Source of the DNA: a virus
Reading direction: 5' to 3' (one strand)
Length of the DNA stretch: 64,000 nucleotides
Virus record (IMG/VR): IMGVR_UViG_3300045988_183523
Span: 40,364 to 104,363 of that record
In this document: one piece after another, positions 28,201-63,291 of the stretch
How the letters are laid out: each line of letters opens with the position of its first letter
Numbering within the stretch: position 1 is the stretch's first letter
Program-made: the position numbers and the translations under genes
Notes under the pieces: generated by a model
What the model saw: the letters and a program-made list of their open reading frames with translations, nothing else
What the model was told of the DNA's origin: nothing
Databases searched by the model: none

Positions 28201-31113
28201 TTTGAAAATGATATTAACTCGTATTTGAATAATGAAAAAAAGCAAGAAATAATTCCGGAAGAACCAAGTATATTTAAAAATAATGAACCGGTTTATTTAG
28301 ATAAAGGTATTTATTATCTGTTTTTAGATTTTGGTCCGGGAAGTTTGGCAATCTCTAATTCACCAATATACAAATGTGACACAAAATTGCATTTTCAAAA
28401 TCCAGAAGATTATAATATCATGTATAATCAAATTGCTGAAAATTTGCCGAACAGTTGCACAAATGAAGAATATAAAGAAGCCTTTAAAGATTTTTCAAAC
28501 TACAACAAAGCACATAATTTCGTTTTTTATAAGAATGAAAAACTTGCACACGATATAACAACTTATCAGTTTAGCGGCAGCGATAACGAAAAAATCAAAA
28601 ATACTTATGAAGATGCAGAATGTATTTCAATGATTTGTGAAAATTGTGGTGAAATTGTTTATAGCTATGCTAAATTTGAGGTTGAAGCTGATCAAGATAA
28701 GGATCCTGATAATAAACATCCTGAAAAAATAGATGATAGTGACCACAATTTTGTTTACACTTATGATGAGCCAAATTGTATTGAAGCTGGATATAAAAAG
28801 TGGATTTGCAAGAACAGTGTGGTACAAGGATATGTTTTAACCGGAGACACAGAACATCGTTCTTATATTGAAGATTACATACAAAATAAGAATGATATAC
28901 CTTCTGATTTTGTTAATGCAACATTTGACGAATTTAAGAATTATTATAATCAAAATTTCGAAAGAAAATTTGAGGAGAAATATCCAGATGTAAATTCATT
29001 TTCAGATTTATATAAAAATAAAAATTCTAATAACTTTTTTGAATATGAATCTAATTATGATGCATTGATGAATTTTATAAAAAGTCATAGCTTTTATGAA
29101 ACTGATTATTGTGATAAGGAAATAAAAGAAGTAGTACCTGCTCTTTCAACTAACCATCAACATAGTTTTAAGGCTACATACACTGCTAACTTTGATGGCA
29201 CACATAACAAAAAAGCCGTTTGCACTAATAAGGGTTGTTATAGTTATATGAAAGAAAAAGAACTTTACAACCTTACTGATTCTGAGGCTTCCGAGTTAAA
29301 TTTAAACTATTTTAGAGATAATAATGGAATATGGTATAAATTCGATGAAAACGGAAATTCGACGATTGTAAACAGGAACAGTGAGGAAATTGTCCTTAAT
29401 ACTTATGGCGAAAAAGTAAAAACTACAACAAAAATAAATGAAACTGAAAATTGCATTTATGACGACAATTGCACCTGTATCTACTGTGGAGCTGTAAATC
29501 ATAAAAAAATAAACAGTGAAATATCAAATTATATTCCATCAACAGCAGATACAAACGGTTCATATATTAAAACAGATTATTGTGAAAAATGTAACGCGAT
29601 TGTTGATGTAAATAAAATAATTTTACCAAAAGGAGAAATCACTGTTAATGTAGATGACAATATTACTCTTAAAGTAAACAAAAAGGGAACATATTCAGCA
29701 TCATATAACATCAAATTTAACGGTATTGACAACTATTCTAATATAACATTCAAACCAAAAGATACACTTGTTCTTGTTAATGATAAAACAAATGAATCTA
29801 AAATAGCGAAAGTATCACAAAAACAAATTGAATTTTCTAAAGATAAAGGTCTTACAACAACAGGTACAGTTACTGTTGAAAGTTTAACAGAAGGTACTTG
29901 GACCGGATATATTACATTTGACTACTACTTTTGGAAAAATGTAGATGTAACAGATTATTTCATTTGGACTCAAGATACAGAAAAATTGTATGTTTTAAAT
30001 AATGATGGTAAAACAGAAGAATATTGGAATGACGAATTGATTAAAATGATACAGGATAATCAATCGAACAATGTATGGGTAGATGAAAACAAAAATATCA
30101 GAGAAAAGTTGCCTTCGGATTTATATTATAAATATTTGAATTCACGAGTATTTGACAGTTCTTCGTTTGGAGATGATAATTTACAACAAAAAAGCAAAAA
30201 TGCGTATAATCATCATTGTTCTAATAATTTAGCAATTAAAAAAGAAAATACATTAACCGGATATATTCCATATGAAAGAACGGCAATAAACGGATTGACG
30301 GATTTGGGTGCTGAATGGATTAAAGCTAACAATGGCAAGCTTGTTATACCATCGTGCGCAACTGCGATAGCAGATGCCAAAGTTATCAATTCGACTACTA
30401 CATCAGATGAATATAACACAACAGATCCGGTAAGAGATGTATATTCAATTGTAAAATATGGAAAAGGAACATTTCAACCGTATTTAATTTCCTATGATAA
30501 AAGCGGTAAAAAATATTATGTTGAGGATGATAATGTAACTTTGATTGATCCTTATTCAAGTCGAGGTAGAGAAATTGAACATTATAATGATAATATTTAT
30601 AGTGTTACAGAAGTAATTATTCCAAATAGTTGTAAATCAATTGGTATAAAATCATTTTTCTACAATAGTAGTATTAAAAATATTACTCTCAAAGGATCCA
30701 CATTTGTTAAAAATTATGCATTTTCGGGAATTGATTCTGCATATGCTCTTGGAAATTCATATGAAAATCTTTATGAAGTAAATAATAAGAAAAACGATAA
30801 ACTTGATATATATATCCCTGACGATACAATCTTTAGTTCACTTGTATTTGGATGTGCAAATGCATTAGAATCACTTGAATTGTATGGCTCAATTGCAAAA
30901 GTGCTACTCGTAGATAACAAGTATCCTGATAAGTTAGTTGGATATGATTATCATGAAACTTCTGCGGATATAATTATTCATTATAATTCATTAGAAGAAT
31001 TAAATAGAATAAAAAACGCTTCGCCTATTTACAGATTTTTTGATAATTCTTATAATGAGAACGAATATTACGAAACTAATAATATGAATTTTATAAAAAA
31101 TAGTGGTACATAA
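25198..31113 (+). CDS. Giant secreted protein (1971 aa) with ~7 Cys-rich zinc-ribbon-like repeats (APTCTEEGT.TYTC..CGYSYTEDIP) and BspA-type leucine-rich-repeat segments
   Basis: Signal peptide MSKNKKIISVFLAIITMLTCFPISAFA. Repeated CxxC..(20)..CxxC units. LRR_5-like segments (IIIPYTYQFIWNLDLFSNLKKIEAH; VIIPNSCKSIGIKSFFYNSSIKNITLKGSTFVKNYAFSG). No sorting signal. Confidence 0.6.
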   Translation: MSKNKKIISVFLAIITMLTCFPISAFANNIDWEYSVNEDNTIKITGYNGNLLSTLELPKTIDDKTVIGTSSEIFENKSVDNVKTIIIPYTYQFIWNLDLFSNLKKIEAHSLTIQNMYLLNGGQENKYIELNSENTEKFEKSLAVLSKLNESLCENNKEINKEKTTDCKKDGINYICKVCGYEWKKACQEHQYEYVKEKSTKDNCYSECIACGEQIKSNHNYKSEITKAPTCTEEGTRTYTCTNCGYSYAEDIPKTTHDFVRKTLVEATCAQPGTDELTCSRCGYKETETTYKSHEYDDGVVVDEGNCVNVKIKYTCKLCGNTYEETEDVLHDCIIENGYFQCKRCNKKVKLTLNSINTENYTYNFDDVNDLDWDGALNTYVINCNEDSRYTFDFSKLNFNSDHGSVSLVKIDPEFTDDEIILYSLLKQAYPRYQLDKYDTDGRCHPVENAPKLSYDFLSMFSLYDWTAYGWDPEWSANLENKFEWTENSELQFKNSQVFFDLQKDRSNGKAYNYLEKYGSECFLDGTTKETLSLKKGKYLLVVKNAYSDSCKEPMFTGKFDIKKECNHVYNETITKAPTCNEKGTKTYTCTKCGYSYTEDIPKITHNYKAKITKEPTCTEEGIKTYTCKLCGDSYTEIIPATGHEYKKINIDDKTYKIECSKCGLNRFYKELDDWTITFSGNDNTCTLYKYNGSETILSLPEKVGKYKVLGLEKSAFENVKIADDITEVTIPYTYKKVEGIENLSNLRQLNYHEILWDYFSNELISFFDQNNIYCRSLCEGHWYTDQDCTKQDIDVYCKICGYTEKRDSNMTYFEDGHQYVISNVNGDTITYTCTQCPNSYTMICKHNNAKYDRKVEANCQHGSYDIYVCPDCNSEIKRHEQPTLGEHSYEIKNGKAICEVCQNEITYKSYNIDELNKQYTFYQKDFYDDHLSSTEKKNRYNCVKLTIDKNNTPVYFYQTKSQGKFNIRTFEGLSQDEIDYYLISSSQYGLNYDNFEKYNEFENDINSYLNNEKKQEIIPEEPSIFKNNEPVYLDKGIYYLFLDFGPGSLAISNSPIYKCDTKLHFQNPEDYNIMYNQIAENLPNSCTNEEYKEAFKDFSNYNKAHNFVFYKNEKLAHDITTYQFSGSDNEKIKNTYEDAECISMICENCGEIVYSYAKFEVEADQDKDPDNKHPEKIDDSDHNFVYTYDEPNCIEAGYKKWICKNSVVQGYVLTGDTEHRSYIEDYIQNKNDIPSDFVNATFDEFKNYYNQNFERKFEEKYPDVNSFSDLYKNKNSNNFFEYESNYDALMNFIKSHSFYETDYCDKEIKEVVPALSTNHQHSFKATYTANFDGTHNKKAVCTNKGCYSYMKEKELYNLTDSEASELNLNYFRDNNGIWYKFDENGNSTIVNRNSEEIVLNTYGEKVKTTTKINETENCIYDDNCTCIYCGAVNHKKINSEISNYIPSTADTNGSYIKTDYCEKCNAIVDVNKIILPKGEITVNVDDNITLKVNKKGTYSASYNIKFNGIDNYSNITFKPKDTLVLVNDKTNESKIAKVSQKQIEFSKDKGLTTTGTVTVESLTEGTWTGYITFDYYFWKNVDVTDYFIWTQDTEKLYVLNNDGKTEEYWNDELIKMIQDNQSNNVWVDENKNIREKLPSDLYYKYLNSRVFDSSSFGDDNLQQKSKNAYNHHCSNNLAIKKENTLTGYIPYERTAINGLTDLGAEWIKANNGKLVIPSCATAIADAKVINSTTTSDEYNTTDPVRDVYSIVKYGKGTFQPYLISYDKSGKKYYVEDDNVTLIDPYSSRGREIEHYNDNIYSVTEVIIPNSCKSIGIKSFFYNSSIKNITLKGSTFVKNYAFSGIDSAYALGNSYENLYEVNNKKNDKLDIYIPDDTIFSSLVFGCANALESLELYGSIAKVLLVDNKYPDKLVGYDYHETSADIIIHYNSLEELNRIKNASPIYRFFDNSYNENEYYETNNMNFIKNSGT

Positions 31114-38468: not shown

Positions 38469-39293
38469 ATGCTTGAAATAATTTACAGAATTTATGAGGT
38501 TGCTGATGAAGAAACAGCCGCAAAAAATCGTGAAAAAGATTTAGGATTTGGTTTGTTTTCTTCAACGAGTAAAGTGGAAAATACTGAAATTCTTATGGAC
38601 TGCCTAATTTGTGACAGCCGAGAGCAATTCAAAGAAATAATTAAAGAACAGTATGGGCAAGCGATTGCTTTTCGTTACTCAAAAAAATTAAAAGCAGGAG
38701 ATTTGTACTGCATTATCATCGGCGAGCATTGTTATAACACAGAACGATATTTCAATAAAGTCACTTTTACTTGCGACTGTTGTGGTGCAACCGTAGAAAC
38801 TTACTACGGTAGTGCGATATATTTCTCTGACTATGAAGTAAGAAATAGATTTTATGGTATAGAAGAATATGCAAAAAAGCGTTTTTGCTGTCACAAATGT
38901 AAACAAGTATATGAGGAGCGAGAACACGCAAAATTACACCCCGATGATGAACAAGAGTTTTATATTCAAAGAGATATGTTTACAGAAGATATATCCGGCT
39001 ATATCTATAAAATCTCGAAGAAGTCAACAGGCGAATTTTATATCGGTCAAACAATGTATGCACCTGTTTTTCGTTGGGGTCAGCACTTGAAAACGGAAAG
39101 ATTCCCTATCGAGAATATTACAGATTACAAGTTTGAGGTTATAGAGATTGTTCCAAAAACTGAAAACATTTTGGAACGAGAAAAATATTATATTCAAAAA
39201 TTCTATAAGGAAAACCCGGAAAAATCTTTGAATATAATGTGTACTGCAAATTTAAACCCTGAACAGTTACAATTTGATGAGGTGAAAGAATGA
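38469..39293 (+). CDS. Cys-rich zinc-finger + C-terminal GIY-YIG domain protein
   Basis: CLICDS...CDCCGATVE...CCHKCKQ, then YIYKISKKSTGEFYIGQTMYAPVFRWGQH...EREKYYIQKF. Confidence 0.5.
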   Translation: MLEIIYRIYEVADEETAAKNREKDLGFGLFSSTSKVENTEILMDCLICDSREQFKEIIKEQYGQAIAFRYSKKLKAGDLYCIIIGEHCYNTERYFNKVTFTCDCCGATVETYYGSAIYFSDYEVRNRFYGIEEYAKKRFCCHKCKQVYEEREHAKLHPDDEQEFYIQRDMFTEDISGYIYKISKKSTGEFYIGQTMYAPVFRWGQHLKTERFPIENITDYKFEVIEIVPKTENILEREKYYIQKFYKENPEKSLNIMCTANLNPEQLQFDEVKE

Positions 39294-50398: not shown

Positions 50399-51593
50399 AA
50401 AAAATAAAATTTTATGCGTTATTTTATCATTCATTGTTGCATTATCTTCTTTACCAATAATAAGCTATGCCGGAACTCCTAATATTCCAAAAAGTTTTTC
50501 TGTTGGTTTAGGAGGAACATTGACTATACCAGTTGATTTGTCAAATTGTTCAGGAAAGCAAAAAAAATGGAAGATCAATGGTGATGGTTCTGTTGCAACA
50601 ATATCTTCAAATGGGGATGTTACAGGAAACAATTTAGGAACTGTGTCAGCCTATTGTTCAACGAGTGCCGGAGAAATCGCAATCTGCAAAGTTACAGTTG
50701 TTCCAAGTGCAAATATTTCTATTGATAAAGCTAATGTATCACTGAAGATAAGTGATACTGTTAAGTTAAATAGCACTGTTTTTCCGGAAAACGCAGTTCA
50801 AAATGTTATTTGGAATTCACAAAATAATTCTGTTGCAACTGTTACTAACGATGGAATTATTACAGCAGTAGGAAAGGGTTTTACAAAAATTACCTGTATT
50901 TCAACTGATGGAACAAATAATAATGCAACATGTAACATTACCGTTATAGAACAAACAACTAAACCATTAAAAAAACAACGAAAAAACAAATCAACTACTA
51001 AAAAGCGGAAAACAGAAGTGAAAACCACAACCACAAAAAAAGAAACTGTTTTGCAAACAGATAAAACAACAAAGAAAAAAATAAAATCTACTTTTGACAA
51101 TTCTGTGAAAAGAAATGAAGATAATATAACTGAAGCTAAGACAACTGCTGCTTCTACAACAAAAAAAATAACTTCAAAAATAAATTTAATTGAAAGTACA
51201 ACTGCATCACAAAATGAGAGTGAAAATGAATTTGATATAAATAATGGTGATGAAAGCGTAGCAGACAGCGAATATTCTTTATTTGCAATCAGTAAAAGTA
51301 AAAAGCCAATTCAAATTACTTGGAATAAATTAGAATCGGTATCAGGTTATGAATTATATCAATCAGATAAAGCAAATTTATCAAAACTCAGCTTAATATA
51401 TGACGGACCACAAAATTATTACAATAAGCATTTATATCTAAATGGAAAAAACTATTTTTTTGTAGTTCGTGGATATAGTTTCAACGATAAAGGTGAAAAA
51501 ATATATATGAATTATTCCAAAGCAATTTACATAAAAGCAGTAAACAAATCAATAATAAGAAAAATATTTGATAAATTACAAAAAGATGTGTAA
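50385..51593 (+). CDS. Secreted protein: signal peptide, two Big_2 Ig-like domains, T/K-rich linker and a C-terminal Fn3-like domain
   Basis: MIMIRKNKILCVILSFIVALSSLPIISYA. Big_2-like VSLKISDTVKLNSTVFPENAVQNVIWNSQNNSVATVTNDGIITAVGKGFTKITC. Confidence 0.55.
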   Translation: MIMIRKNKILCVILSFIVALSSLPIISYAGTPNIPKSFSVGLGGTLTIPVDLSNCSGKQKKWKINGDGSVATISSNGDVTGNNLGTVSAYCSTSAGEIAICKVTVVPSANISIDKANVSLKISDTVKLNSTVFPENAVQNVIWNSQNNSVATVTNDGIITAVGKGFTKITCISTDGTNNNATCNITVIEQTTKPLKKQRKNKSTTKKRKTEVKTTTTKKETVLQTDKTTKKKIKSTFDNSVKRNEDNITEAKTTAASTTKKITSKINLIESTTASQNESENEFDINNGDESVADSEYSLFAISKSKKPIQITWNKLESVSGYELYQSDKANLSKLSLIYDGPQNYYNKHLYLNGKNYFFVVRGYSFNDKGEKIYMNYSKAIYIKAVNKSIIRKIFDKLQKDV

Positions 51594-51608
51594 AAACTAT
51601 TTTATTTT

Positions 51609-51616
51609 ACTATATA
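51609..51616 (+). promoter_or_regulatory. Recurrent promoter-like motif copy (ttattTTACTATATAac)
   Basis: Upstream of hpf. Confidence 0.35.
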
Positions 51617-51725
51617 ACATCAGAAAAGAAAAACAGCATATTTTTTACTTCGAATATATTTTATAAAAAATATGTAAAAAAGCAAAATAATAACTATATA
51701 ACATTGTAACAAAAGAGGAAATGAA

Positions 51726-52286
51726 ATGTTAAATAAGAATTTTGTAGTAAAGGGTTTTGAGCTTATAGATGAAGAAAAAGAAATAATTTCATCAAAAGTA
51801 GACAAGCTTGATAAAAAAATAAAAATCAATACAGATGTAACGATTAAAATCAGAACAGCGGCGAGTGGAGACTACAAGTCAACTGTTTCGTTTACATTAC
51901 TTGGAAAATTTATTAAGGGTGAAGGTAAAAATAAAAAATCACCTATACCGGCAGTAAATGAAGCCATTGATGATGCAATTCGCAAATATAGAAAGCTTAA
52001 GGATAATCGTTTTGAAAAGCAAGGAAATAAAATTTCTAAACTTCTTGAACCTAAAGCTGTTCTAAAAAATGTCAATATGAAAGAATATGACAACTTTGGC
52101 TCAATGTCTGAAAAAATAACAAAGAAAAAATATATTGAATTAAGACCTCAAACTATTGACGAAGCCATTGACGAAATGCTGTTTCTCGGAGAAAAATTTT
52201 ATATGTTTAAAAACCTTGATGGTGAAACTTGTACAATTTTCAAAAGAAACAATAATCAAGGATTCGGATTGTTAGTGTCGAAGTAA
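51726..52286 (+). CDS. hpf: Ribosome hibernation-promoting factor, long form
   Basis: N-terminal domain FVVKGFELIDEEKEIISSKVDKLDK... and C-terminal domain IELRPQTIDEAIDEMLFLGEKFYMFKNLDGETCTIFKRNNNQGFGLLVS align with B. subtilis Hpf/YvyD. Confidence 0.8.
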   Translation: MLNKNFVVKGFELIDEEKEIISSKVDKLDKKIKINTDVTIKIRTAASGDYKSTVSFTLLGKFIKGEGKNKKSPIPAVNEAIDDAIRKYRKLKDNRFEKQGNKISKLLEPKAVLKNVNMKEYDNFGSMSEKITKKKYIELRPQTIDEAIDEMLFLGEKFYMFKNLDGETCTIFKRNNNQGFGLLVSK

Positions 52287-52298
52287 GGAGTACATATT

Positions 52299-52787
52299 AT
52301 GTTTAAATTAGAAATAAGAAGTGATAATTATAATATTTATTCTTCTGATTTTGATGAATTTAAGAGAAATGAAAATGATAAATATTCATTAAAAACAACT
52401 TATTATTTCCAAAATCGCAGTGATGCGATTAAATTCATTGAAAAATTTCTCGTCGATTTTTGTAAATATACAAAAATTCAAAAGGTTAATAACTGTCAAA
52501 GCATTTATCCTAATTCAAAAATAACTGATAATCAAAGAAAAACATTTCTACGCACAGTACGAAGGTTTGTTCCTGATTTCAAAAAAATATCACAATCTTA
52601 TAAATGTTTTGATATATTGTTTTTTATATCTGGCGGAAGCGCAAGTAGAGTAACACCTTTAAGTTTCAATTTAAAGGAAATTAACTATGATTCTACTTTA
52701 AGCAATGCAATTAAAATTACAGAAAAGTATTCTAAAAATTTTGCATTGTTTATATTAAGTTCGCCTGAAGATGTAAAAAACATTTAG
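52299..52787 (+). CDS. hypothetical protein (162 aa)
   Basis: ORF only. Confidence 0.4.
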   Translation: MFKLEIRSDNYNIYSSDFDEFKRNENDKYSLKTTYYFQNRSDAIKFIEKFLVDFCKYTKIQKVNNCQSIYPNSKITDNQRKTFLRTVRRFVPDFKKISQSYKCFDILFFISGGSASRVTPLSFNLKEINYDSTLSNAIKITEKYSKNFALFILSSPEDVKNI

Positions 52788-52912
52788 TATGATTTATTTG
52801 CGTATATAGCCAAATGCTTTAACTAAAAAGATTTCTTCGAGCAAATAAGTGGTCAGAAGGTTATTGCATTTGGATTATATAAATATAAAAACATGAAAGG
52901 AGGAGGATACCA

Positions 52913-53620
52913 ATGATGAAGAAAATTCAGAAAGCACTCGCGATTTGTATGTCAGTAGCTTGTATTGCCGGTTATTCTACACCAGCTCTTGCTGCATCTA
53001 CAAATGTAAACTCTGTCGGTTCTGTTGTTGCAGATGCAGCTGCAGACGATCAAAGCGAAAATAACTATGGTTCACAAGGAATTGTAGGTAAGGATGCTAC
53101 ACAGCAGAAAGAATCAGAATACTCTACATATGCTAACACTGATAAAACAGTTGAAAACGGTAATGCTGCATCAACAGATGTTTATGCAACACAATCATCA
53201 ACTTTCTCAGTCGTTGCACCGGTTGTACTCGTAATGGATGGTTCTGCCGAAAATGAAACTCATAAGGCTGTCGGACAAATTCAGGTTGCAGGAAACCTTG
53301 CAGGTAACGAATATGTTGAAGTGACACCGCAAGATGCTGATACACAAAAAGACGGCATTAACTTTGCATTGAAACAAACAGGCAAGAGCGATGTAGTTGC
53401 TACAATTGTTCAGGATAAAACAAAGTTCTGTACAGCAACAAGTGGTACTGTTGCAGACATGGATAATATGACTAAAGGTCTTACAACAAGTCTTGCAGAT
53501 ACTACAGCAACAATTACTGTTACTGCTGATGATTCAACTAAAAGCGGCGATGCCGGTATTTCAGCAGGTTCATGGCATGGTCAATATAATACTAATATTG
53601 CACTTAATGTAGCTGAATAA
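52913..53620 (+). CDS. Secreted protein consisting only of the shared N-terminal module (module-only or 'major' member of the 4-paralog family)
   Basis: Signal peptide ...STPALA|AS. Mature N-terminus STNVNSVGSVVAD. VYATQSSTFSVVAPVV. C-terminal SAGSWHGQYNTNI. Confidence 0.6.
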   Translation: MMKKIQKALAICMSVACIAGYSTPALAASTNVNSVGSVVADAAADDQSENNYGSQGIVGKDATQQKESEYSTYANTDKTVENGNAASTDVYATQSSTFSVVAPVVLVMDGSAENETHKAVGQIQVAGNLAGNEYVEVTPQDADTQKDGINFALKQTGKSDVVATIVQDKTKFCTATSGTVADMDNMTKGLTTSLADTTATITVTADDSTKSGDAGISAGSWHGQYNTNIALNVAE

Positions 53621-53632
53621 CTTGGCAAAAAG

Positions 53633-53691
53633 TATTTTCTCAACCAAAACAAAAGTTAGTTCATCTTTCTTTTTGTGCGGTTGAGAAAATT
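53633..53691 (+). terminator. 12-bp-stem hairpin with a large loop (attenuator or partial terminator) between the module-only gene and the downstream genes
   Basis: attttctcaacc...(34 nt)...ggttgagaaaat followed by ttgtatt. Confidence 0.3.
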
Positions 53692-53750
53692 TGTATTATA
53701 AATATTATATGTGTAATTAATATTTATATTTTTTAAGGAGGAAAATATAT

Positions 53751-54803
53751 TTGAAAGAAAAAAAGCTTAAAGAAGTGTTTGTTACAGATGTAAATGAATA
53801 TCCATATTTGCATGAAATTCTTGATGATGAAGATGTTGAAAACTTAAAGATATTTAAGAAGGATAAAAAAATAATTCCATTCAATTATCTCACAAAAAAG
53901 CAATTTAAAGAAATTCTTGACGATGAAGATTGTCAGGCTAAAGTTATCGGTAATGTAAGACTTCGTGATAAGTATCATAGAGAAGTTAAAAATAAAAACC
54001 AAAAAACTAAAACAAAAAAGAAATCAAATGTAATAGGTTGTTTTCACACATATTTCAACGATGAATATATCGAAAAGCATCCTAATGAAGAGTTTAACGA
54101 AACTCATACATATGAATTAAATCTTTATAAGCCTAAAGATACATCTTGCATTGGCTATGCTTATATTGGTAACAATAAGTTTGTACGAATTGAAAATGAA
54201 CATTATTTCTTTGTTTTCCTTCTTATCATGATTATGATTGCCGCTGTTGTTTTAGGTGTGTATCTTATTCCGAAAATTGATATTAACAAATCAAAAGACT
54301 TTGAAAACGGAGATTATACTTCACCAAATAGTTTCAATTTGTCATACGAAAATAACATTCAATTTGATTTTGTTAACCATTATACTATTGATAAGGAACA
54401 TACTTATTTGCCAATCGGCAATCCTGAAAAAAATCAATTTTCTTATAAAGTAAAAGTATATCTTGTTAAACCAGATGATATAAGCAAAAAAAATTACCTT
54501 ACTACCATAAAAGATAGCGATGGTAATGATATTCTCTGTTTTGATATGAATAAAAATGGAATAGTTGACAAAAACGAATCGGTTGTTGATGAATTAGTCT
54601 GGGAAACGAAACTAATTGAACCGGGTGGAAATCCGGCTAAAGTTGAGCTGTATGATATTCTCCCAAAAGGAACTTATTATTTGGCGTTTAAATATAGTTT
54701 AAGTCAGAAAGACGGTACTGATATTACAACACCGGATAATCAAAAATATTCGGTTCAAAACGGTTTTACGGCTGTTACAACTACAATTGATGTAGTTAAA
54801 TAA
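53751..54803 (+). CDS. Single-pass membrane protein (cytoplasmic ~165 aa, TM, extracellular ~165 aa), TTG start
   Basis: RBS aaggagga. TM FFVFLLIMIMIAAVVLGVYLI. Confidence 0.45.
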   Translation: MKEKKLKEVFVTDVNEYPYLHEILDDEDVENLKIFKKDKKIIPFNYLTKKQFKEILDDEDCQAKVIGNVRLRDKYHREVKNKNQKTKTKKKSNVIGCFHTYFNDEYIEKHPNEEFNETHTYELNLYKPKDTSCIGYAYIGNNKFVRIENEHYFFVFLLIMIMIAAVVLGVYLIPKIDINKSKDFENGDYTSPNSFNLSYENNIQFDFVNHYTIDKEHTYLPIGNPEKNQFSYKVKVYLVKPDDISKKNYLTTIKDSDGNDILCFDMNKNGIVDKNESVVDELVWETKLIEPGGNPAKVELYDILPKGTYYLAFKYSLSQKDGTDITTPDNQKYSVQNGFTAVTTTIDVVK

Positions 54804-54808
54804 CATTA

Positions 54809-55363
54809 TTGTTTATGCTGAAAGATAATGAAAAGGTTCTCAAACTAAAAATAAAAAAAATATCATCTTTTTTTCTTACATTTGGACTTGTTCTTTTCTT
54901 CTTATTGGCTATCAGACATTATGTCTGTACCCCAATATATATTCCCTCTGAATCAATGAGCGAAACATTACAAGTTAATGATTTGCTGTTGATGTCAAAG
55001 ATTTCCTATAATGTTTCTAAACCCGAAAGAAAAGATATTGTTGTTTTTTCCTCTGATCAAGTTGATGAAAAGGAAACAATACTAATTAAAAGAATTATCG
55101 GTCTTCCGGGCGATAAAATTGAAATAAAAAATGGAAATGTTTATGTGAATAATAAACTTCTTAGTGAGTCTTATGCTAAAAAAGATAATTTTTCCGGCAC
55201 ATTTGTTGTTCCAAAAAACAAATACTTTGTTCTTGGAGATAACAGAGAGGACTCTTTAGATTCACGATACTGGGATAATCCTTATGTAGATAAAGATGAT
55301 ATAATTGGCAAAGCGATTTTTAAATACTATCCAAAATTTGAAAATATTTATAAGAAAAAATGA
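54809..55363 (+). CDS. Signal peptidase I (S26, P-type Ser/Lys LepB/SipS family)
   Basis: IPSESMSETL (box B, Ser nucleophile), KDIVVF (box C), LIKRIIGLPGDKIE (box D, Lys base), VLGDNREDSLDSRYW (box E). Confidence 0.85.
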   Translation: MFMLKDNEKVLKLKIKKISSFFLTFGLVLFFLLAIRHYVCTPIYIPSESMSETLQVNDLLLMSKISYNVSKPERKDIVVFSSDQVDEKETILIKRIIGLPGDKIEIKNGNVYVNNKLLSESYAKKDNFSGTFVVPKNKYFVLGDNREDSLDSRYWDNPYVDKDDIIGKAIFKYYPKFENIYKKK

Positions 55364-55463
55364 AACAACCGTAGACATATGGGGATTGCTCAAATAATAG
55401 AGAAGCTATGTTTATATAGCGGATGTTGTAAATTTATAAAAGACTGAAAGAACTGATTGTATT

Positions 55464-55652
55464 ATGAGAAAATTATTGGCAATTTTGGTCGTGTTAGCCA
55501 TAGTTGGAGCATTAATAGTCGGAATATCAGGAAAAGATATTGTTGATTATTGTATCAATTTTATGAAAAATCTATGTGTCTTTATTCTGAATTGGCTTAA
55601 ACAGATAGCTGATTTTATTCAGGACTATATAATATCTCATGTGGCTTCGTAA
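55464..55652 (+). CDS. small membrane protein (62 aa)
   Basis: ORF; 1-2 TM. Confidence 0.35.
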   Translation: MRKLLAILVVLAIVGALIVGISGKDIVDYCINFMKNLCVFILNWLKQIADFIQDYIISHVAS

Positions 55653-55656
55653 TATA

Positions 55657-55687
55657 AGGACACTCATTTGAGTGTCCTTATTTTATT
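55657..55687 (+). terminator. rho-independent terminator
   Basis: aaggacactc-attt-gagtgtcctt followed by attttatt. Confidence 0.65.
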
Positions 55688-55712
55688 ATAAATTAGAATT
55701 GAGAGGTAAAAT

Positions 55713-57389
55713 ATGATAAAAAATAAACTTATAAATAAAATTATAGCTGTTTCTTTGACGGCACTGACATTATCAAGTTCTGCAGTACCGGCTATGGCAG
55801 CTACACAAAATGTTAATTCAATAGCTTCAGTAGCAGAAGATGTTTCGAATTCACAAAAAGTAGGTCAAGATAAAAATCAAAGTAAGCAAACTAAATATAG
55901 TGAATATCAAGATGATACAAATACATCAACTGATGTGTATGTCACACAAACATCTACATTTTCTGTAACAGCACCAGTAGTTGCAATACTCAATGGTCAA
56001 CCTGATGACAACGGTAATTATTCAGGTGATGTAAAATACAGTATTAAAGGTAATATTGCATCAAACGAAATTGTTAAAGTAGTTCCAGATAATTCGTTAT
56101 TCTTATCTCAATCCGGCAAAGATGATATTGAATGTTCAATTGTTGGAAAAAATAATGAAGTTGCAAAAACAGAATTCTCATATGCAGATGGTCTTCGTGC
56201 TGAAAAAGAGTTAAGTCAAGAATACACTATAACTACAAAAGATATTACAGCTGGTTCTTGGCACGGTCAATATAATACAAATATTTCACTTGAAAACAAT
56301 CTTAAATGGTATGATATTACAGATAAGATTGATTTAGCAAACGGTGAAAATGCTCGATGGAATATGTACGGTATACTGATGAAAGGTGATTCAAAAAACG
56401 AGTATAAAACAGTAAATATTCCTGTTCAAGAAGGGGAAAAATATAGAGTAACTGGTGTCGTTTATGGTAGTGATAGATTGTTAACGGCAAGATCTGAACT
56501 TGGATACGGTTCTCAATATACAATTGATAATCAAATGATTCCGGCAAACAATATCAATGGATCAGGAACTATTAAAGAGCAAGTGTTGACTATACCAGAA
56601 GGTGCAAAATGGTTATGTGTATCATCACCGAAGTTTGCTTTGTCACAGTTCAAACTTGAAAAACTTAGTAATGACTCTGTAAACATTACTCCTTATTCAA
56701 GTGAAAATTTCAAATGGCAGTTTGATAAACCATATTTAACATTTACTGTTGATGATACCAATGACAATATTGACGAGATTGCAAAAGTTTTTGCAAAACA
56801 CAATATGCCTTGCAATTACGCAACACAGTATTCAAGAATTGACGGCACTGCAAATAACGGCGAAACAAAAAAAGATATATTATTGAAAGCCCAAGAATCC
56901 GGTAGTGAAATTTTGGCTCATCATTATCTTGTTCTTGATGATAAATCAACAGAAAATGATTATACCGAAATATACGAAAATACAAAAACACAACTTGAGA
57001 AAGCTGGTTTTAATGTAAATGGTATTATTGTTTCGGGAGGCTCAACATATTCGAAACAAAATTTTTCTAAATCAACAAAGCATGCTTACGCTGCAGGTTA
57101 CTTATATTCGGATTTAACAGCGACAAATAATGTATATAATCATAGATATTATAACAACAGAATTTGGAATGACTCTGCCGATATTAGTTATTGGAAAACT
57201 CAAATTGATAATTTGGTGAATGACGGCTCTGGCTGGTTAAATATTGGCTCACATGTTGATGCTGATTGGTTGAGTGGTCATACAATGAATCCTGAAATGA
57301 TTGATGAAATACTTACTTATTGTGAAGAAAAAGGCGTTGAGGTTACAACTTGGAATTCACTTTACAATAATTGTGGCGTAAACAAATAA
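55713..57389 (+). CDS. Secreted protein: shared N-terminal module + middle beta-rich domain + C-terminal polysaccharide-deacetylase (CE4/NodB)-like domain
   Basis: Signal peptide ...AVPAMA|AT. Shared module. C-terminal LTFTVDDTNDNIDEIAKVFAKHNMPCNYAT...ILAHHY resembles the CE4 TFDDG/HxxH motifs. Confidence 0.5.
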   Translation: MIKNKLINKIIAVSLTALTLSSSAVPAMAATQNVNSIASVAEDVSNSQKVGQDKNQSKQTKYSEYQDDTNTSTDVYVTQTSTFSVTAPVVAILNGQPDDNGNYSGDVKYSIKGNIASNEIVKVVPDNSLFLSQSGKDDIECSIVGKNNEVAKTEFSYADGLRAEKELSQEYTITTKDITAGSWHGQYNTNISLENNLKWYDITDKIDLANGENARWNMYGILMKGDSKNEYKTVNIPVQEGEKYRVTGVVYGSDRLLTARSELGYGSQYTIDNQMIPANNINGSGTIKEQVLTIPEGAKWLCVSSPKFALSQFKLEKLSNDSVNITPYSSENFKWQFDKPYLTFTVDDTNDNIDEIAKVFAKHNMPCNYATQYSRIDGTANNGETKKDILLKAQESGSEILAHHYLVLDDKSTENDYTEIYENTKTQLEKAGFNVNGIIVSGGSTYSKQNFSKSTKHAYAAGYLYSDLTATNNVYNHRYYNNRIWNDSADISYWKTQIDNLVNDGSGWLNIGSHVDADWLSGHTMNPEMIDEILTYCEEKGVEVTTWNSLYNNCGVNK

Positions 57390-57415
57390 TTTCTATTTAA
57401 TTCAGGAGGTTTTAT

Positions 57416-59584
57416 ATGAAAATAAAAAAAATAATCTCTATTATTTTAGCTAATATAATTATTTTTTCTTATGCAACAACAGCTTATGCGGCAACAGAAT
57501 ACAAAAATTCATCCGGTTCTGTTGCGGAGGATATAACGAACACCGATATAGTAGGTGTTGATGAAAATCAAAATGCTCAAACAAAGTATAATGAATTTAA
57601 TGTTGATAACAGTGCTATAACAAGAGTATATGTTTCGCAAACATCAACATTTTCGGTAACAGCACCAGTAGTTGCAATACTCAATGGTCAACCTGATGAC
57701 AGCGGTAATTATACAGGCAATGTCGAATATTCAGCAGTAGGAAATATAGCTTCAAACGAAAAAATTGTTGTAACTCCTGATGACACTTTTAATCTTTCGC
57801 AAAACGGAAAAGATGATATTAACTGTTCGATCACATTAAATGATGATAATAATTCAAAAACAGATTTTACATATGTTAACGGACTTCGAGAGGATAATTC
57901 ACTAAAACATACTTATACACTTTCAACTAAAGATATTTCAGCAGGTTCATGGCACGGTCAATACAATACAAATATCTTTTTGGCAAGTAATGAACTATAT
58001 TATTCTTCAATTGATAAAGCAGTAAATGATGCTAACAATTTGACAACTCAAAATGCTGATGTTTTAACTAAAAATTCAAAAAGCGCAGAAGCAAGTGTAT
58101 TTGTTCAAGACAATGTTACATACATTACTTTAATGAATGATGTAACTAATGCTGATAATATTGTTCTTACAAACGATACAGTCCTTGACCTTAATTTTCA
58201 TACCTTGTCTTTTGAATCAGGTAAATATCTTGAATTTAACAAAAATTTGACAGTATACGATGGTGTTATAAATATTGATGATTCACATTACGGAATACTT
58301 GGTGCAAAAGATAATACAGAAAACTCATTTGTACTAAATAATGTTACATTTAATCAAAATATAAGTGAAAATATAAGTTATAATTCTTTTTGTATTGATA
58401 TAAGCACTTCAAATAGTAATTGTTCAAATTTAAAAATTTATCAAAAAGGAAAAGGTAATTCATCATATGGTGTATACGGATATACGAACAGAAATAAAGA
58501 TGAAAAAGCACAAGGATTTTTAGAACATTTTATTTTTGAAAGCACAGTTGAAAATCCTTTGAAAATTCGTGGAACTCAAAATGGTGGAAATGATGAGATC
58601 AGTAATGCAAAAATAAAAATAAATCTACAAAATAATTCTTCTATATCAACCGGAATATATAGTGCTAATACTTCATCAAACCTAAAAATATTAGATAGTG
58701 ATGTAGATATTTATTCGACAAGTGGGTATGTTAGTGGAATAGAATCACGCTCTATTAATACAACCATTAAAAATTGTAGTGTAAATAGTGACGATTTTAC
58801 AAAAAAATCAGACAGAGATGGTAGTACCGGAGTAGCCATCATTCTGCAAAACAAACCTACAACATCAAGTAAAACAATAGTTGAAGATTGCACCATTTAT
58901 GGAAAACAGTGGGGGTTGGAAACTCCGGCTTATAGCGAAGTTGTAATTAAAAACTGTGATGTGACTTCCACAAATCATACAGCATATATTTGCGGTAATG
59001 GTGATGTCTATAATTCAACATTTAAAATTGCTAACAGAGATAAATATCTAAATGGCACTCTCGACACCCCATATGGATTCTATGCCGGAAGTCCATACGA
59101 TAAAGTTAAAACACATATTGTTAATATCTATAATTGCGAAATTGGCAATCCGATTGACACATCAGGAAAAAACATTCCTGAAAATGGTGTAACGGCTAAA
59201 AATAATGGCTATTATCCACCAAAGGAAATAAATATTTATGATTCAGTAGTATATCAAGGTCGTCAAGCAGTATTTAATTTTAACGCTTCTTCGCCATATA
59301 TAAAGAATTTTGCAAAATTTAATTTATATGGAAATACAAAACTAATGACAAATTCGAAAACAGAATTATCAAAAAATCAAGTTGCGTTTGATATTGAATG
59401 GTTTAAAAATCCAGATATTACTTACAATTTAAAAGGTGATTGGGAAGCAGCCAAGGATGATTATATTTATTATGGAATAATGAGTAGTCCGAATAAACTT
59501 ATTAACGCAAATATGTATTGTAAAGAAAATGCTCCTAAATCTGAAGCTTATGAAGATTATGCAAATGTGTACGATTACAGATGA
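57416..59584 (+). CDS. Secreted protein: shared N-terminal module + right-handed beta-helix (pectate-lyase-like) repeats
   Basis: Signal peptide ...TTAYA|AT. Shared module. N/S/T/G-rich ~22-aa periodic repeats. The C-terminal ~90 aa are homologous to the C-terminus of 59696. Confidence 0.5.
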   Translation: MKIKKIISIILANIIIFSYATTAYAATEYKNSSGSVAEDITNTDIVGVDENQNAQTKYNEFNVDNSAITRVYVSQTSTFSVTAPVVAILNGQPDDSGNYTGNVEYSAVGNIASNEKIVVTPDDTFNLSQNGKDDINCSITLNDDNNSKTDFTYVNGLREDNSLKHTYTLSTKDISAGSWHGQYNTNIFLASNELYYSSIDKAVNDANNLTTQNADVLTKNSKSAEASVFVQDNVTYITLMNDVTNADNIVLTNDTVLDLNFHTLSFESGKYLEFNKNLTVYDGVINIDDSHYGILGAKDNTENSFVLNNVTFNQNISENISYNSFCIDISTSNSNCSNLKIYQKGKGNSSYGVYGYTNRNKDEKAQGFLEHFIFESTVENPLKIRGTQNGGNDEISNAKIKINLQNNSSISTGIYSANTSSNLKILDSDVDIYSTSGYVSGIESRSINTTIKNCSVNSDDFTKKSDRDGSTGVAIILQNKPTTSSKTIVEDCTIYGKQWGLETPAYSEVVIKNCDVTSTNHTAYICGNGDVYNSTFKIANRDKYLNGTLDTPYGFYAGSPYDKVKTHIVNIYNCEIGNPIDTSGKNIPENGVTAKNNGYYPPKEINIYDSVVYQGRQAVFNFNASSPYIKNFAKFNLYGNTKLMTNSKTELSKNQVAFDIEWFKNPDITYNLKGDWEAAKDDYIYYGIMSSPNKLINANMYCKENAPKSEAYEDYANVYDYR

Positions 59585-59594
59585 TTGTAATAAT

Positions 59595-59630
59595 AAAAAA
59601 CCAGTTACATTTTGTAATTGGTTTTTTATT
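59595..59630 (+). terminator. rho-independent terminator
   Basis: aaaaaaccagttaca-ttt-tgtaattggtttttt. Confidence 0.6.
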
Positions 59631-59658
59631 ATTTTTTATGTAGTTTTTAATTTTTTTT

Positions 59659-59666
59659 ACTATATA
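59659..59666 (+). promoter_or_regulatory. Recurrent promoter-like motif copy (ttttttttTTACTATATAat)
   Basis: Upstream of 59696. Confidence 0.35.
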
Positions 59667-59695
59667 ATCTTGTAAACAAAGAAGGAAGTGAAAAA

Positions 59696-62326
59696 ATGAA
59701 AAGAAATAAATTTTGGAAATTGATAGCTTTTTGTATGATGATAATTACAACATTATCAATATCGACTCCTGCAATGGCAGCAAGTAAATATATGAATTCA
59801 TCTGGTTCGGTTATTGAAGATATAGTTAACAGCGTAAAAACAGGAAAAGATAAAAATCAAAACGAAGAAACAAAATATAAAAGTTATTCAAGTGATAGTT
59901 CGACAACAACAAGCGTATATGTTTCGCAAGCTTCTACCTTTTCTGTTATAGCACCTGTAATTGTCACAATGAATGGAGAAGCAGACAAAAATGGAAATTA
60001 TACAGGTACAATTAAATACAGTGTTACCGGAAATATCGCCGGCAATGAAGTAGTTACAGTAGAACCGGATTCATCCTTTGAATTAAAACAACCTGAAAAA
60101 GAAAATATTTTATGTAATATTGTATCAAATGATGGAAACACAGCAAAAACTAAATTTACTTACGGTGAAGGATTAAAAATAGGTAATACAGTATCACAAG
60201 AATACACTTTAACTACAAAAGATGTAACGGCAGGTTCTTGGGTTGGATATTTTTCAACAAATATTTCTATTTCTGATTCGGAAAAATTTTATTCTTCAGT
60301 TAAAAAAGCCGTTGATGATGCTAATAATTTAACAACCGAGAATGCTGACATTTCTGTAAGTAATGTGAATAACGCAGCAGCAAGTCTTTTCGTGTCGAAT
60401 AACAATGCCTATATAACTTTATTAAATGATGCAAGTGATGTTGAAGCACTAACATTAAACAATAATACGGTTTTGGATTTACAAAATAATTCATTATCTT
60501 TTAAAACAGGCAAAAATCTTGTTTTTAATAAAGATTTTACAATTCTAAACGGAAATGTTATTTCGACTGATACAAATAAAACAATTCAAGGCTCAACAAG
60601 CAATACTAATGGTGAATTTTATTTGAATGACATTAAACTTACACAAAATGTTACTTCATCAATCAGTTTTACTGCAATAGGCGTTGATATAAGCACTCTA
60701 AATTCAACATTTAGAAATTTTAGTATAATTCAACAGGGGAGCGGCAATAACTCATACAATACATTAGGAATTGCAACACGAAATAAAAGTACGGATTCAA
60801 ACACACTAATTGATAATTTTAACTTTGATTCAACAGTAACTGGCGGAAATTATCAGACTGCTGTTCAGCCATTTGGAAATACTGTAATAAGTAATTTTAA
60901 CATTATTATAAATACTGTTAATGCAGGTACAAGGGCATTTAATGCTCCACAATCAGCTGTTAATTTCACTGCTAAAAGTGGAAATATTGATTTGAAAACA
61001 AATCGTGAAATAAGCGATAATGGAACATTTGCAGTAAATATATGTGCTTCTGTGGCAAGTAATATAAAAGATGTAAACATAAATTTAAAAGGAAACACTT
61101 CTGAAATAAGAGGTATACAGATTCCATCTAATTCTTACAATAATAAGTTAGAAAATGTAACAATAGATCTCGAATCAAATTCAAATAATATATTCGGAAT
61201 TGCAACTTTTGGTAATGATTTAACAATGATTGATTCAAATATTCAAGTAAACTCGAAAAATGCTCAAAATGGTAACGCAATTTGCGGAATTACCGGAAAT
61301 AATAAATATACAAATGAATATTTAAAAGTAATCAATTCAAAAATTTCTGTTAATTCTGAAGGAAATAATCAACCTATTGTTAACGGAATAGAACTTTGGA
61401 AATATGATTTAGATGTCAATGGAAGTGAAATCACAACGAATTCTATCAACTCAAATCAGGATTACGGAATTCAAACTACTAATGAAAATATAAATATTGT
61501 AAATACTAATGTTACTTGCAATACGAAGAATGTAACCACCGGGGCTGCAGTTAAAGTTGAAAATGATTCAAATGTTTCAAATAAAAAAACCTATATAACA
61601 AAATCTGATATATATGGAACACATAATGGCGTTATTACATCGGAAAAAAATAAAACAGAAATTAAAAATTCAAATATTACTTCTGCAACTGAACCAATCA
61701 CAATTAAAGAAAATACTGATGTTTATGATTCAAAAATTAAAACTATCAATAGAGATAAGTATAGTGCCAAAGAAATAGGTCCTTCATTTTTTTCAGTAAA
61801 AATCATAAGAAGTGATAATAATGATTCGGCTCGTAATACAATAAATTTCTATAATTGTGAAATAGGAAATCCTATGGATGATGTTTCAAATTATTCATAT
61901 TACACTTTTCTTACCTATAATGATAGTTGTGCATCATGTCCTTTTGATGTTAACATTTATGATTCAATAACATATAAAGGTAAAACAAATTATATTTATT
62001 TAGGTACACCTATTTCATCTTTTGTTAAAAAGGGAACAAAAAAATCGACAACATATAATCTATATGGTTCAACAAAAATAATGAAAGATAATCAAACTGA
62101 AATATCGAAAGAACAGATTGCATCGGATATTGAATACTTTAATGATCAAAATAACTGGACTTATCCAATAAGAGGTAATGCAAGTGATTCTACACCAGAT
62201 GATGAAAAGTATTATGCATCATTATGGACTCCTAATAGAATTATTGAAGCGCATTATTATTGTGCAGACGGCACACCAAAGTCATATGCATACGAAGATA
62301 CATGTGGATTACATGATAAACGATGA
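59696..62326 (+). CDS. Secreted protein: shared N-terminal module + long beta-helix repeat region (876 aa)
   Basis: Signal peptide ...STPAMA|AS. Shared module with AGSWVGYFSTNI. Beta-helix-like repeats. C-terminus homologous to 57416. Confidence 0.5.
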   Translation: MKRNKFWKLIAFCMMIITTLSISTPAMAASKYMNSSGSVIEDIVNSVKTGKDKNQNEETKYKSYSSDSSTTTSVYVSQASTFSVIAPVIVTMNGEADKNGNYTGTIKYSVTGNIAGNEVVTVEPDSSFELKQPEKENILCNIVSNDGNTAKTKFTYGEGLKIGNTVSQEYTLTTKDVTAGSWVGYFSTNISISDSEKFYSSVKKAVDDANNLTTENADISVSNVNNAAASLFVSNNNAYITLLNDASDVEALTLNNNTVLDLQNNSLSFKTGKNLVFNKDFTILNGNVISTDTNKTIQGSTSNTNGEFYLNDIKLTQNVTSSISFTAIGVDISTLNSTFRNFSIIQQGSGNNSYNTLGIATRNKSTDSNTLIDNFNFDSTVTGGNYQTAVQPFGNTVISNFNIIINTVNAGTRAFNAPQSAVNFTAKSGNIDLKTNREISDNGTFAVNICASVASNIKDVNINLKGNTSEIRGIQIPSNSYNNKLENVTIDLESNSNNIFGIATFGNDLTMIDSNIQVNSKNAQNGNAICGITGNNKYTNEYLKVINSKISVNSEGNNQPIVNGIELWKYDLDVNGSEITTNSINSNQDYGIQTTNENINIVNTNVTCNTKNVTTGAAVKVENDSNVSNKKTYITKSDIYGTHNGVITSEKNKTEIKNSNITSATEPITIKENTDVYDSKIKTINRDKYSAKEIGPSFFSVKIIRSDNNDSARNTINFYNCEIGNPMDDVSNYSYYTFLTYNDSCASCPFDVNIYDSITYKGKTNYIYLGTPISSFVKKGTKKSTTYNLYGSTKIMKDNQTEISKEQIASDIEYFNDQNNWTYPIRGNASDSTPDDEKYYASLWTPNRIIEAHYYCADGTPKSYAYEDTCGLHDKR

Positions 62327-62327
62327 A

Positions 62328-62368
62328 ACAAAAGAGAGAAATCGTTATTGATTTCTCTCTTTTGTTAT
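62328..62368 (+). terminator. rho-independent terminator
   Basis: acaaaagagagaaatc-gttatt-gatttctctcttttgt. Confidence 0.75.
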
Positions 62369-62387
62369 GTACTTTTTTGTTTTTTTT

Positions 62388-62395
62388 ACTATATA
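62388..62395 (+). promoter_or_regulatory. Recurrent promoter-like motif copy (ttttttttTTACTATATAaac)
   Basis: Upstream of the sortase gene. Confidence 0.35.
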
Positions 62396-62421
62396 AACAT
62401 GAATAGCAAAGGAGGATTTTT

Positions 62422-63291
62422 ATGAGTACAAAATCAATAAAAATAGTGACAGTTTTAATTTCGATAGCACTAATTACCTGTGTAGCGTTTTTGTTAATAT
62501 TTAAAATAAATGTTAATAATTCGTATAAACAAACTAATCAAGTTATGCAGAGTGTATTGGTGAAAAATTCAAAAGATGAAAATGATGTCGATTGGGAAAA
62601 ATTGAAAGCGAAAAATAAAGATGTTATTGGCTGGCTGTCGATAAACGACACAACAATAAATACGCCTATTGTTCAATCAACAGATAATTCATATTACTTA
62701 AAGAAAAATTTTAACAAAAAATATTCTTTTAACGGTAATCCATTTATTGATTACCGTAATGATATGAATATAGGTGATACTAATACTATTATATACGGTC
62801 ATAATATGAGAGATAGTCAATTATTTGGAGAATTACTTGACATATATAAAAACTCACAAACGGCAAGTAATTACAAAATAATAAAATTGAAAACACCTAA
62901 AAGTGTACACAAATATGCAATAATTGGAGCTTTTTATACCAATTCAGAGCCTAAAGATGATAATGGATATGTTTTTGAATACAATTCACCTAATTTAGAC
63001 GAAGGCGATTATGCTGACTTTTTAGCACAACTTGAACAGAGATACATATTTACATCCGGTGTTGATGTGAATATGTCTGATAAACTTCTAACTCTTTCTA
63101 CATGTGCTTATCAATTTAAAAATGAGAGATTTGTAGTTGTCGCAAGAGAACTTCGTAATGGTGAATCAGAAAATTCAATAAAATTCAATTTTGAAGATGT
63201 AAATAATCCGAGGTATCCCGACAAATGGTATAAAGTAAACCACAAAAATAACATTTACAAAAATTTGCCTAAATGGTCATTAAGCGAGTAA
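62422..63291 (+). CDS. srtB: Class B sortase
   Basis: N-terminal TM. DVIGWLSINDTTINTPIVQ...NTIIYGHNM (catalytic His)...LLTLSTC (catalytic Cys)...RFVVVAREL (Arg) align closely with S. aureus SrtB. Confidence 0.85.
   Translation: MSTKSIKIVTVLISIALITCVAFLLIFKINVNNSYKQTNQVMQSVLVKNSKDENDVDWEKLKAKNKDVIGWLSINDTTINTPIVQSTDNSYYLKKNFNKKYSFNGNPFIDYRNDMNIGDTNTIIYGHNMRDSQLFGELLDIYKNSQTASNYKIIKLKTPKSVHKYAIIGAFYTNSEPKDDNGYVFEYNSPNLDEGDYADFLAQLEQRYIFTSGVDVNMSDKLLTLSTCAYQFKNERFVVVARELRNGESENSIKFNFEDVNNPRYPDKWYKVNHKNNIYKNLPKWSLSE

Follow-up and report, generated by a model that had tools for sequence, protein, structure and literature searches.

What is the common function of four neighboring secreted proteins that open with the same module and are encoded alongside a membrane protein and a signal peptidase? 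The question is raised by a gene cluster at positions 52,913 to 62,326 of a 64,000-nucleotide stretch of the IMG/VR virus record IMGVR_UViG_3300045988_183523 (positions 40,364 to 104,363 of the record; this 64-kb stretch is called the window here). The window is AT rich (GC content of 25 to 34%) and carries hallmarks of Gram-positive conjugative elements, namely, a type IV secretion system (T4SS) coupling protein, a thioester/SpaA adhesin, and a class B sortase; the four proteins come from an uncultured gut Clostridium, in which a mobile element encodes them. An initial annotation of the window had read the cluster as a candidate TasA/SipW-like fiber or secretion system with a dedicated signal peptidase. 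Our analysis points instead, with a rough probability of 0.45, to a surface scaffold or display system that is carried on mobile elements of gut Clostridia and whose parts associate through the module.

All four plus-strand open reading frames (ORFs) of the initial annotation were found, and each protein opens with a basic-hydrophobic signal peptide ending in AxA, followed by the common N-terminal module. Over its approximately 190 residues, the module of the three fusion proteins is 38 to 42% identical to that of the stand-alone 235-amino-acid (aa) protein, and 49 columns are invariant across the four, including those of all the motifs quoted previously (NS.GSV..D, VY..Q.STFSV.APV, and AGSW.G...TNI). 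The four modules match the family profile described below far beyond chance (E values of 1e-55 to 1e-63). In the 235-aa protein, the predicted layout is a signal peptide (residues 1 to 28), a conserved extension (about residues 29 to 75) with the motifs NSVGSVVAD and GKDATQQKESEY, and an immunoglobulin (Ig)-like core (about residues 86 to 235). The C-terminal domains of the fusions had been labeled CE4/NodB deacetylase-like and beta-helix; searches of Pfam, PHROG, and PDB sequences gave no match for them, so these labels lack support. The 722- and 876-aa proteins, which had been thought to share merely a tail of about 90 residues, are paralogous from end to end (46% identity in the first 405 aa and 32% in the last 340 or so), and the 558-aa fusion has a 552-aa ortholog in a related locus (L001; related loci carry L numbers). 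None of the four C termini (...IALNVAE, ...NNCGVNK, ...ANVYDYR, and ...CGLHDKR) has an LPXTG-type sorting signal, a hydrophobic tail, or a charged end, and sortase-dependent attachment of the module proteins was rejected given the missing sorting signals. The conserved Lys158, Gln, and Thr-Gln of the module were considered as candidate residues for isopeptide or ester cross-links.

Judged from sequence comparison, the module is a new, unnamed, and unannotated family of sizeable extent. A word-indexed search with the 235-aa protein returned only nine relatives; when 1.84 billion cluster representatives were searched exhaustively with a profile, the yield was 961 proteins at an E value of ≤1e-3 and 447 at ≤1e-10, with lengths of 106 to 2,017 aa among the 150 matches listed. 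Every source name of the members is "hypothetical protein," with no Pfam domain recorded over the module, and the named relatives come only from uncultured Clostridia and one Lachnospiraceae isolate. The initial annotation had recognized no named family in the module, and indeed neither Pfam, NCBIfam, nor PHROG gave a match: Pfam returned only a subthreshold DUF4179 match on the signal-peptide region, and a profile search of the PDB matched antibody leader peptides and yielded no sequence relative. Membership in the TasA/camelysin family was rejected, as there was no PF12389 match at an E value of ≤0.1 and hhalign gave a probability of 3% against Bacillus subtilis TasA (56-sequence module profile; the TasA query was verified against PDB entries 8AUR/5OF1 with an E value of 5e-151). 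In the literature, we found no account of such a sortase-independent, pilin-like, or donor-strand system in Clostridia, the systems described being those of TasA/BsaA, archaea, and Bacillus cereus.

Architecture was counted across 203 family members. The module is N terminal, directly after the signal peptide, in 202 of them; 110 are short stand-alone proteins (≤265 aa), and the other 93 are fusions that reach 2,017 aa and are often joined to LRR_5/BspA-type repeats. The alignment resolves the module into two elements, an Ig-like core (consensus VYATQ.S.FSV.IPK ... SAGSW.G.FNF.I) and a separable extension of about 45 aa with two motifs, A ([ND]S.GS...D) and B (G.D..Q.K.S.Y). In 120 members, the extension lies ahead of the core; in six circularly permuted members (P0071, P0121, P0135, P0138, P0146, and P0157), it lies behind; and 77 members lack it. 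Within a scorable cluster, either all paralogs have the extension or none has it (in L007, one of the two matches is a truncated ORF); this uniformity, together with the permutation, suggests that the extension acts as a discrete element working with the core. A divergent copy of the core lies inside a 1,971-aa secreted protein of the window that has no Pfam match (hmmsearch domain E value of 4.6e-9; last-strand motif ...LTEGTWTGYITFD; no extension), so the core can be found at internal positions too.

The initial annotation had placed the N-terminal conservation exactly at the cleavage site. This holds for the four close paralogs and fails family-wide: the first motif lies about 2 residues from AxA in some members and more than 15 in others, and the extension may follow the core. 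Conservation at the cleavage site is thus a property of close paralogs and not of the family, which argues against a peptidase recognition tag; that function of the N-terminal motifs was rejected on the variable spacing, the six permuted members, and the 77 that lack the motifs.

In structure predictions, the fold of the module comes nearest to that of pilus subunits, which polymerize by donor-strand complementation. With an alignment of 12 sequences, AlphaFold returned a predicted local distance difference test score (pLDDT) of 61 and a disordered extension; with 56 diverse sequences, the pLDDT was 88.2, the predicted template modeling score was 0.76, and block means over the extension were about 77 to 95. 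The best Foldseek matches of the deep-alignment model were CfaE (probability of 1.00), the PapG pilin domain (0.99), CfaB (0.97), and CsuE (0.87), with much the same matches for the shallow-alignment model. Neither fold-search list contains TasA, camelysin, archaeal bundling pili, threads, or Ena subunits, and a TasA-like jelly-roll fold was not recovered. Because the scores are modest, we call the predicted fold "pilin-like Ig" and draw no conclusion on homology from it; sequence identity to chaperone-usher pilins is 11 to 16%. The fold search and the gene organization lend independent support to the earlier hunch that the module is fiber-like or scaffold forming.

Gene neighborhoods were compared across 14 distinct genomic contexts (one search yielded two GTDB, six metagenome, and one viral-collection loci). 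Multiparalog clusters recur, with four module genes in the window, three in L004, four or five in L009/L010, four in L011, and three in L012. The most frequent conserved neighbor, in clusters with and without the extension, is a homolog of the single-pass membrane protein encoded at 53751, here named TM350, which adjoins module genes in 7 of the 14 contexts (window, L001/L019, L004, L021, L011, L015, and, in part, L009/L010). As previously described, TM350 has one central hydrophobic helix (about residues 152 to 175); this transmembrane helix separates a Lys-rich N-terminal domain, which lacks a signal peptide, from a C-terminal domain of about 170 aa, and the TM350 family is modular in the same three parts. 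From this layout, we infer a cytoplasmic N-terminal domain and an extracellular C-terminal domain. TM350 has no Pfam, NCBIfam, or PHROG match, and a word-indexed search returned only five close homologs. A separate observation concerns L009, where a 354-aa repeat protein that is not a TM350 homolog (positions 10604 to 11668) lies beside the stand-alone module gene; it ends in ...KVQTGDE, a hydrophobic tail, and a basic end, much like the NVQTG-type signals that clostridial class B sortases use for sorting.

The stand-alone gene is also set apart by a hairpin. The stem-loop that the initial annotation had placed after this gene is present, with a folding energy of −27 to −28 kcal/mol and a z score of −3.2 to −3.8, and is a candidate attenuator or terminator that would set subunit stoichiometry. 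Each of the six clusters tested (window, L001, L019, L004, L009, and L012) has a strong stem-loop directly 3′ of its stand-alone gene, within the small gap that separates it from the following gene, with z scores of −2.9 to −5.1, unrelated sequences, and, in several cases, canonical U-tracts. This positional conservation after the first gene suggests that the stand-alone protein is made in excess of the downstream products, as major pilus subunits are; a separate transcription unit would fit equally well. Terminator-like hairpins after positions 55652, 59584, and 62326 split the region into several transcription units (Table 1). The 62-aa hydrophobic protein, judging by its narrow sequence distribution, is probably not a core component.

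Taken as a scaffold or display system, the cluster would work as follows. The four proteins would be exported by Sec and their signal peptides cut after AxA, here with the help of the element's own peptidase. The stand-alone protein, made in excess, would serve as the structural subunit; the three fusions would join the scaffold via the common module and so display their C-terminal domains; and TM350 would be the cell-side anchor or nucleator. The peptidase would support the processing of the element's own secreted cargo, as an accessory that does not define the system. Excess expression of the stand-alone protein, association of modules with each other or with TM350, and fiber formation by strand or extension complementation are steps that we infer. 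Polymerization is unproven; in its favor are the pilin-like fold, the abundance of stand-alone subunits, the hairpins, and the known chaperone-free fibers that assemble by strand exchange in TasA/BsaA and in archaea.

Several observations weigh against this reading. The initial annotation had proposed an N-terminal donor strand and had itself named an internally satisfied strand as evidence to the contrary, and in the deep-alignment monomer model the extension packs on the core in cis; such docking weakens the donor-strand idea and fits a self-contained domain. Monomer models of strand-exchanging subunits often self-complement, so donor-strand exchange is compatible with this packing. With 77 of the 203 members lacking it, the extension is not a universal polymerization element. 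A TM350-like gene is missing within the available sequence in 7 of the 14 contexts, module genes are solitary in L008, L013, L016, and L022 to L026, and the divergent core copy sits within the 1,971-aa protein as a generic spacer domain would.

These points are the main strength of the closest rival, to which we give somewhat less credence than to a scaffold: the module would be a monomeric, Ig-like stalk or anchor that binds the wall or the TM350 ectodomain and so keeps diverse C-terminal domains at the cell surface, the extension would be an intramolecular strap completing and stabilizing the fold, and nothing would polymerize, so that the stand-alone protein would act as a decoy, spacer, or regulator. 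A strap would produce the confident cis docking that the extension shows in the deep-alignment model, and the permuted and usual orders could both reach one cis docking site on a seven-strand sandwich. The abundance of members without the extension, the core copy inside a giant LRR-type protein, and the many solitary module genes suit a monomer as well. This reading leaves unexplained, however, why about half of the family is stand-alone (about 170 to 240 aa), first in its clusters and with a hairpin behind, and why the best fold matches are polymerizing pilins and not wall-binding or carbohydrate-binding module domains; in the shallow-alignment model, moreover, the extension is disordered. 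The permuted members are compatible with both the polymerizing and the monomeric readings. Engineered self-complemented pilins are built in the permuted order, with the core first.

We next consider whether the peptidase belongs to the system. The protein encoded at 54809 is, as had been stated, a bona fide type I signal peptidase (157.6 bits against PF10502, with a cutoff of 22.9, and 157.6 bits against TIGR02227, with a cutoff of 47), and the archaeal-type profile TIGR02228 (sigpep_I_arch) scores 19.1 bits, below its cutoff of 51.85. We aligned it with the L001 and L019 copies and with two LepB proteins of Clostridium plasmids; the catalytic Ser49 of Box B and Lys94 of Box D (KR.IG.PGD) are invariant. 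Box B lacks the canonical Pro (SM.PT) in the three module-linked copies, which read SMSETL (window), SMINTL (L001), and SMVNTL (L019), i.e., SM[SIV][EN]TL, whereas the plasmid proteins keep it (SMSPTV and SMMPTL). The start codon of the peptidase gene overlaps the stop codon of the TM350 gene in L001 and L019, and 5 nucleotides separate the two genes in the window; between the window and L001/L019 lineages, TM350 is about 41% identical and the peptidase is 56 to 58% identical.

Co-occurrence argues against the dedicated peptidase as a defining partner. Among the 14 contexts, a peptidase occurs in only two, the lineages of window/L005/L020 and of L001/L019; L004 and L021 combine a stand-alone gene, the extension, and TM350, yet their available DNA shows no peptidase. 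Firmicute plasmids commonly carry additional lepB copies: tblastn against a plasmid collection found lepB homologs on 480 records, 23 of them from Clostridium, with examples beside the netE toxin gene on C. perfringens pJFP55F and on C. taeniosporum pCt3. Since only two lineages carry it and plasmid copies are common, the peptidase is a lineage-specific, cotranscribed accessory and not the organizing principle of the system. The same two facts could mean that the gene is nothing but a generic second lepB copy on a large mobile element, tied to the module genes by proximity alone. We regard this as less likely than not, given that gene order and translational coupling with TM350 are conserved across two diverged lineages and that the module-linked copies have the Box B variant in common, whereas neither of the two plasmid LepB proteins in the comparison has it.

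A bolder version of the scaffold is improbable, though worth stating: a new class of Gram-positive fiber, with Sec-secreted, pilin-like subunits that polymerize through the extension without chaperone or usher, TM350 as the anchor, and co-polymerized paralogs that bear enzymes or adhesins. Under it, the permuted members would be self-complemented, nonpolymerizing versions, and carriage on a conjugative element could point to a mating or colonization appendage. Least credible by far is the TasA/SipW-like system, in which a dedicated peptidase recognizes the mature N terminus of its substrates, which also acts as the donor strand in a heteropolymeric fiber: the order of module-only gene, TM350, and peptidase kept in two diverged lineages (with the codon overlap in L001 and L019), the Box B variant, and the pilin-like fold favor it, and against it stand the 12 of 14 contexts without a peptidase (L004 and L021 among them), a peptidase of the P type and not of the SipW type, a module unrelated to TasA by Pfam (no Peptidase_M73 match), hhalign, or fold search, and motifs that lie at variable distances from the cleavage site within an element that may be C terminal to the core or internal.

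The scaffold reading can also be set against known systems, and the cluster belongs to none of the TasA/SipW systems, the chaperone-usher pili, or the sortase pili. With TasA-SipW-TapA of Bacillus and BsaA-SipW of Clostridium perfringens, it shares the grouping, in a Firmicute, of a gene for a Sec-secreted subunit, a signal peptidase gene, and a gene for an accessory membrane-associated protein. TasA and BsaA fibers form by chaperone-free donor-strand exchange through an N-terminal segment (PMC11580942; bioRxiv 10.1101/2022.03.14.484220). The cluster differs from both in that its peptidase is LepB-like and dispensable for most clusters and its module is of another family. The predicted fold resembles that of chaperone-usher pilins (the pilin domains of PapG and FimH, FimA, PapA, CfaB, CsuA/B, and Caf1), yet there is no sequence relationship or Fimbrial Pfam match, the host, a low-GC monoderm Clostridium, lacks a periplasm, and no chaperone or usher gene was found in Pfam scans of the ORFs at 50346 to 63291 and of 17 larger window ORFs or among the Pfam marks of related loci. 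The functional domains lie C terminal to the module, unlike those of FimH and PapG, which are N terminal, and the extension of about 45 aa with two motifs, often absent, contrasts with the strand of 10 to 20 residues in chaperone-usher pilins. By analogy, archaeal donor-strand filaments may serve as a mechanistic precedent for assembly of the module in a monoderm: subunits of the bundling pili (AbpA), the Sulfolobus threads, and the cannulae are processed by signal peptidase I and polymerize without chaperone or usher (PMC9245690, PMC9715654, and bioRxiv 10.1101/2024.12.30.630787). As an additional S26A peptidase on a mobile element, beside genes for abundant secreted proteins, the 54809 product recalls the accessory peptidases encoded by lepB on Clostridium plasmids; it departs from them in its translational coupling to a specific membrane protein (L001 and L019) and in its Box B without Pro. 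Bacillus SipP is another plasmid-borne accessory type I signal peptidase.

The remaining features of the window describe the element that carries the cluster (Table 1). Its class B sortase gene is separated from the module cluster by a strong 18-bp terminator, and the sortase probably acts on the element's adhesins, given that sorting signals are missing from the four module proteins. The secreted protein with fn3 and transglutaminase-core domains encoded next to the thioester/SpaA adhesin could matter if the element's surface proteins are cross-linked. Megablast of positions 52800 to 62400 against plasmid and phage collections found no close DNA relative, and tblastn with the module protein found no match in either type of annotated collection. 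Gene 52913 recurs as an identical copy on the metagenome contig ERZ773235 NODE_8 (308,984 bp; locus L020), which also encodes, about 57 kb away, a second, solitary module fusion of 765 aa (L024). L020 is near-identical to the window element except that the 722-aa paralog is absent, so the fusion cargo varies between near-identical elements. T4SS genes are present in the related locus L015 as well. The solitary 767-aa module fusion of L026 (IMGVR_UViG_3300045988_187020, 47.7 kb) is near-identical in size to the fusions of L022 to L024; as IMG/VR classes this contig as viral, prophages may be a further vehicle of the module family, unless the classification is wrong.

Table 1. Features of the module cluster, of the rest of the window, and of two related loci (window coordinates unless a locus is named).
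Feature	Position	Strand	Remarks
Stand-alone module protein, 235 aa	52913..53620	+	Candidate major/structural subunit
Stem-loop after stand-alone gene	53634..53690	+	12-bp outer stem, inner stem, then U-rich stretch
Single-pass membrane protein TM350, 350 aa	53751..54803	+	Candidate anchor/assembly partner
Type I signal peptidase (S26A, P-type)	54809..55363	+	PF10502 3.5e-46; TIGR02227 2.3e-46
Hydrophobic protein, 62 aa	55464..55652	+	phmmer match only in near-identical element L005
Terminator-like hairpin, 12 bp + T-run	55654..55681	+	Closes the unit of TM350, peptidase, and small gene
Module fusion, 558 aa	55713..57389	+	Module 1 to ~196, then ~360-aa unassigned C-terminal domain
Module fusion, 722 aa	57416..59584	+	Module 1 to ~192, then repetitive C-terminal region ending ...NVYDYR
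Terminator-like hairpin, 20 bp + T-run	59589..59633	+	After 722-aa gene
Module fusion, 876 aa	59696..62326	+	Full-length paralog of 722-aa protein
Terminator-like hairpin, 18 bp	62327..62366	+	End of cluster
Divergent internal module-core copy	29575..29922	+	Residues 1460 to 1575 of 1971-aa secreted protein 25198-31113
Secreted fn3 + transglutaminase-core protein	7766-9055		Adjoins thioester/SpaA adhesin gene
Thioester/SpaA adhesin, 1961 aa	9271-15156		
T4SS coupling protein	18954-21443		
Flotillin/SPFH protein	31301-32716		Cargo of large mobile element
GIY-YIG domain protein	38469-39293		Cargo of large mobile element
T4 Rnl1-type RNA ligase	43422-44858		PF09511 2.8e-30; cargo of large mobile element
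HPF/YfiA-like ribosome hibernation factor homolog	51726-52286		Ribosomal_S30AE and its C-terminal domain; directly upstream of cluster
Class B sortase	62422-63291		TIGR03064 3.9e-48
Signal peptidase of locus L001	11820-12347 (L001)		
Signal peptidase of locus L019	2089-2643 (L019)		

Few surface fibers of monoderm bacteria are known, namely, sortase pili, type IV pili, TasA/BsaA-type fibers, and spore appendages. If the module self-assembles, it would represent a new route of fiber assembly in monoderms and would show the pilin fold at work outside the chaperone-usher pathway; the display by gut commensals of many large LRR/BspA-type and enzyme-like proteins that have no recognized anchor would be explained as well. 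The family, which belongs to uncultured gut Clostridia, comprises about a thousand clusters at 50% identity, unannotated and often on mobile elements. Even if the module proves to be a monomeric anchoring domain, naming it together with TM350 would annotate hundreds of proteins now listed as "hypothetical."

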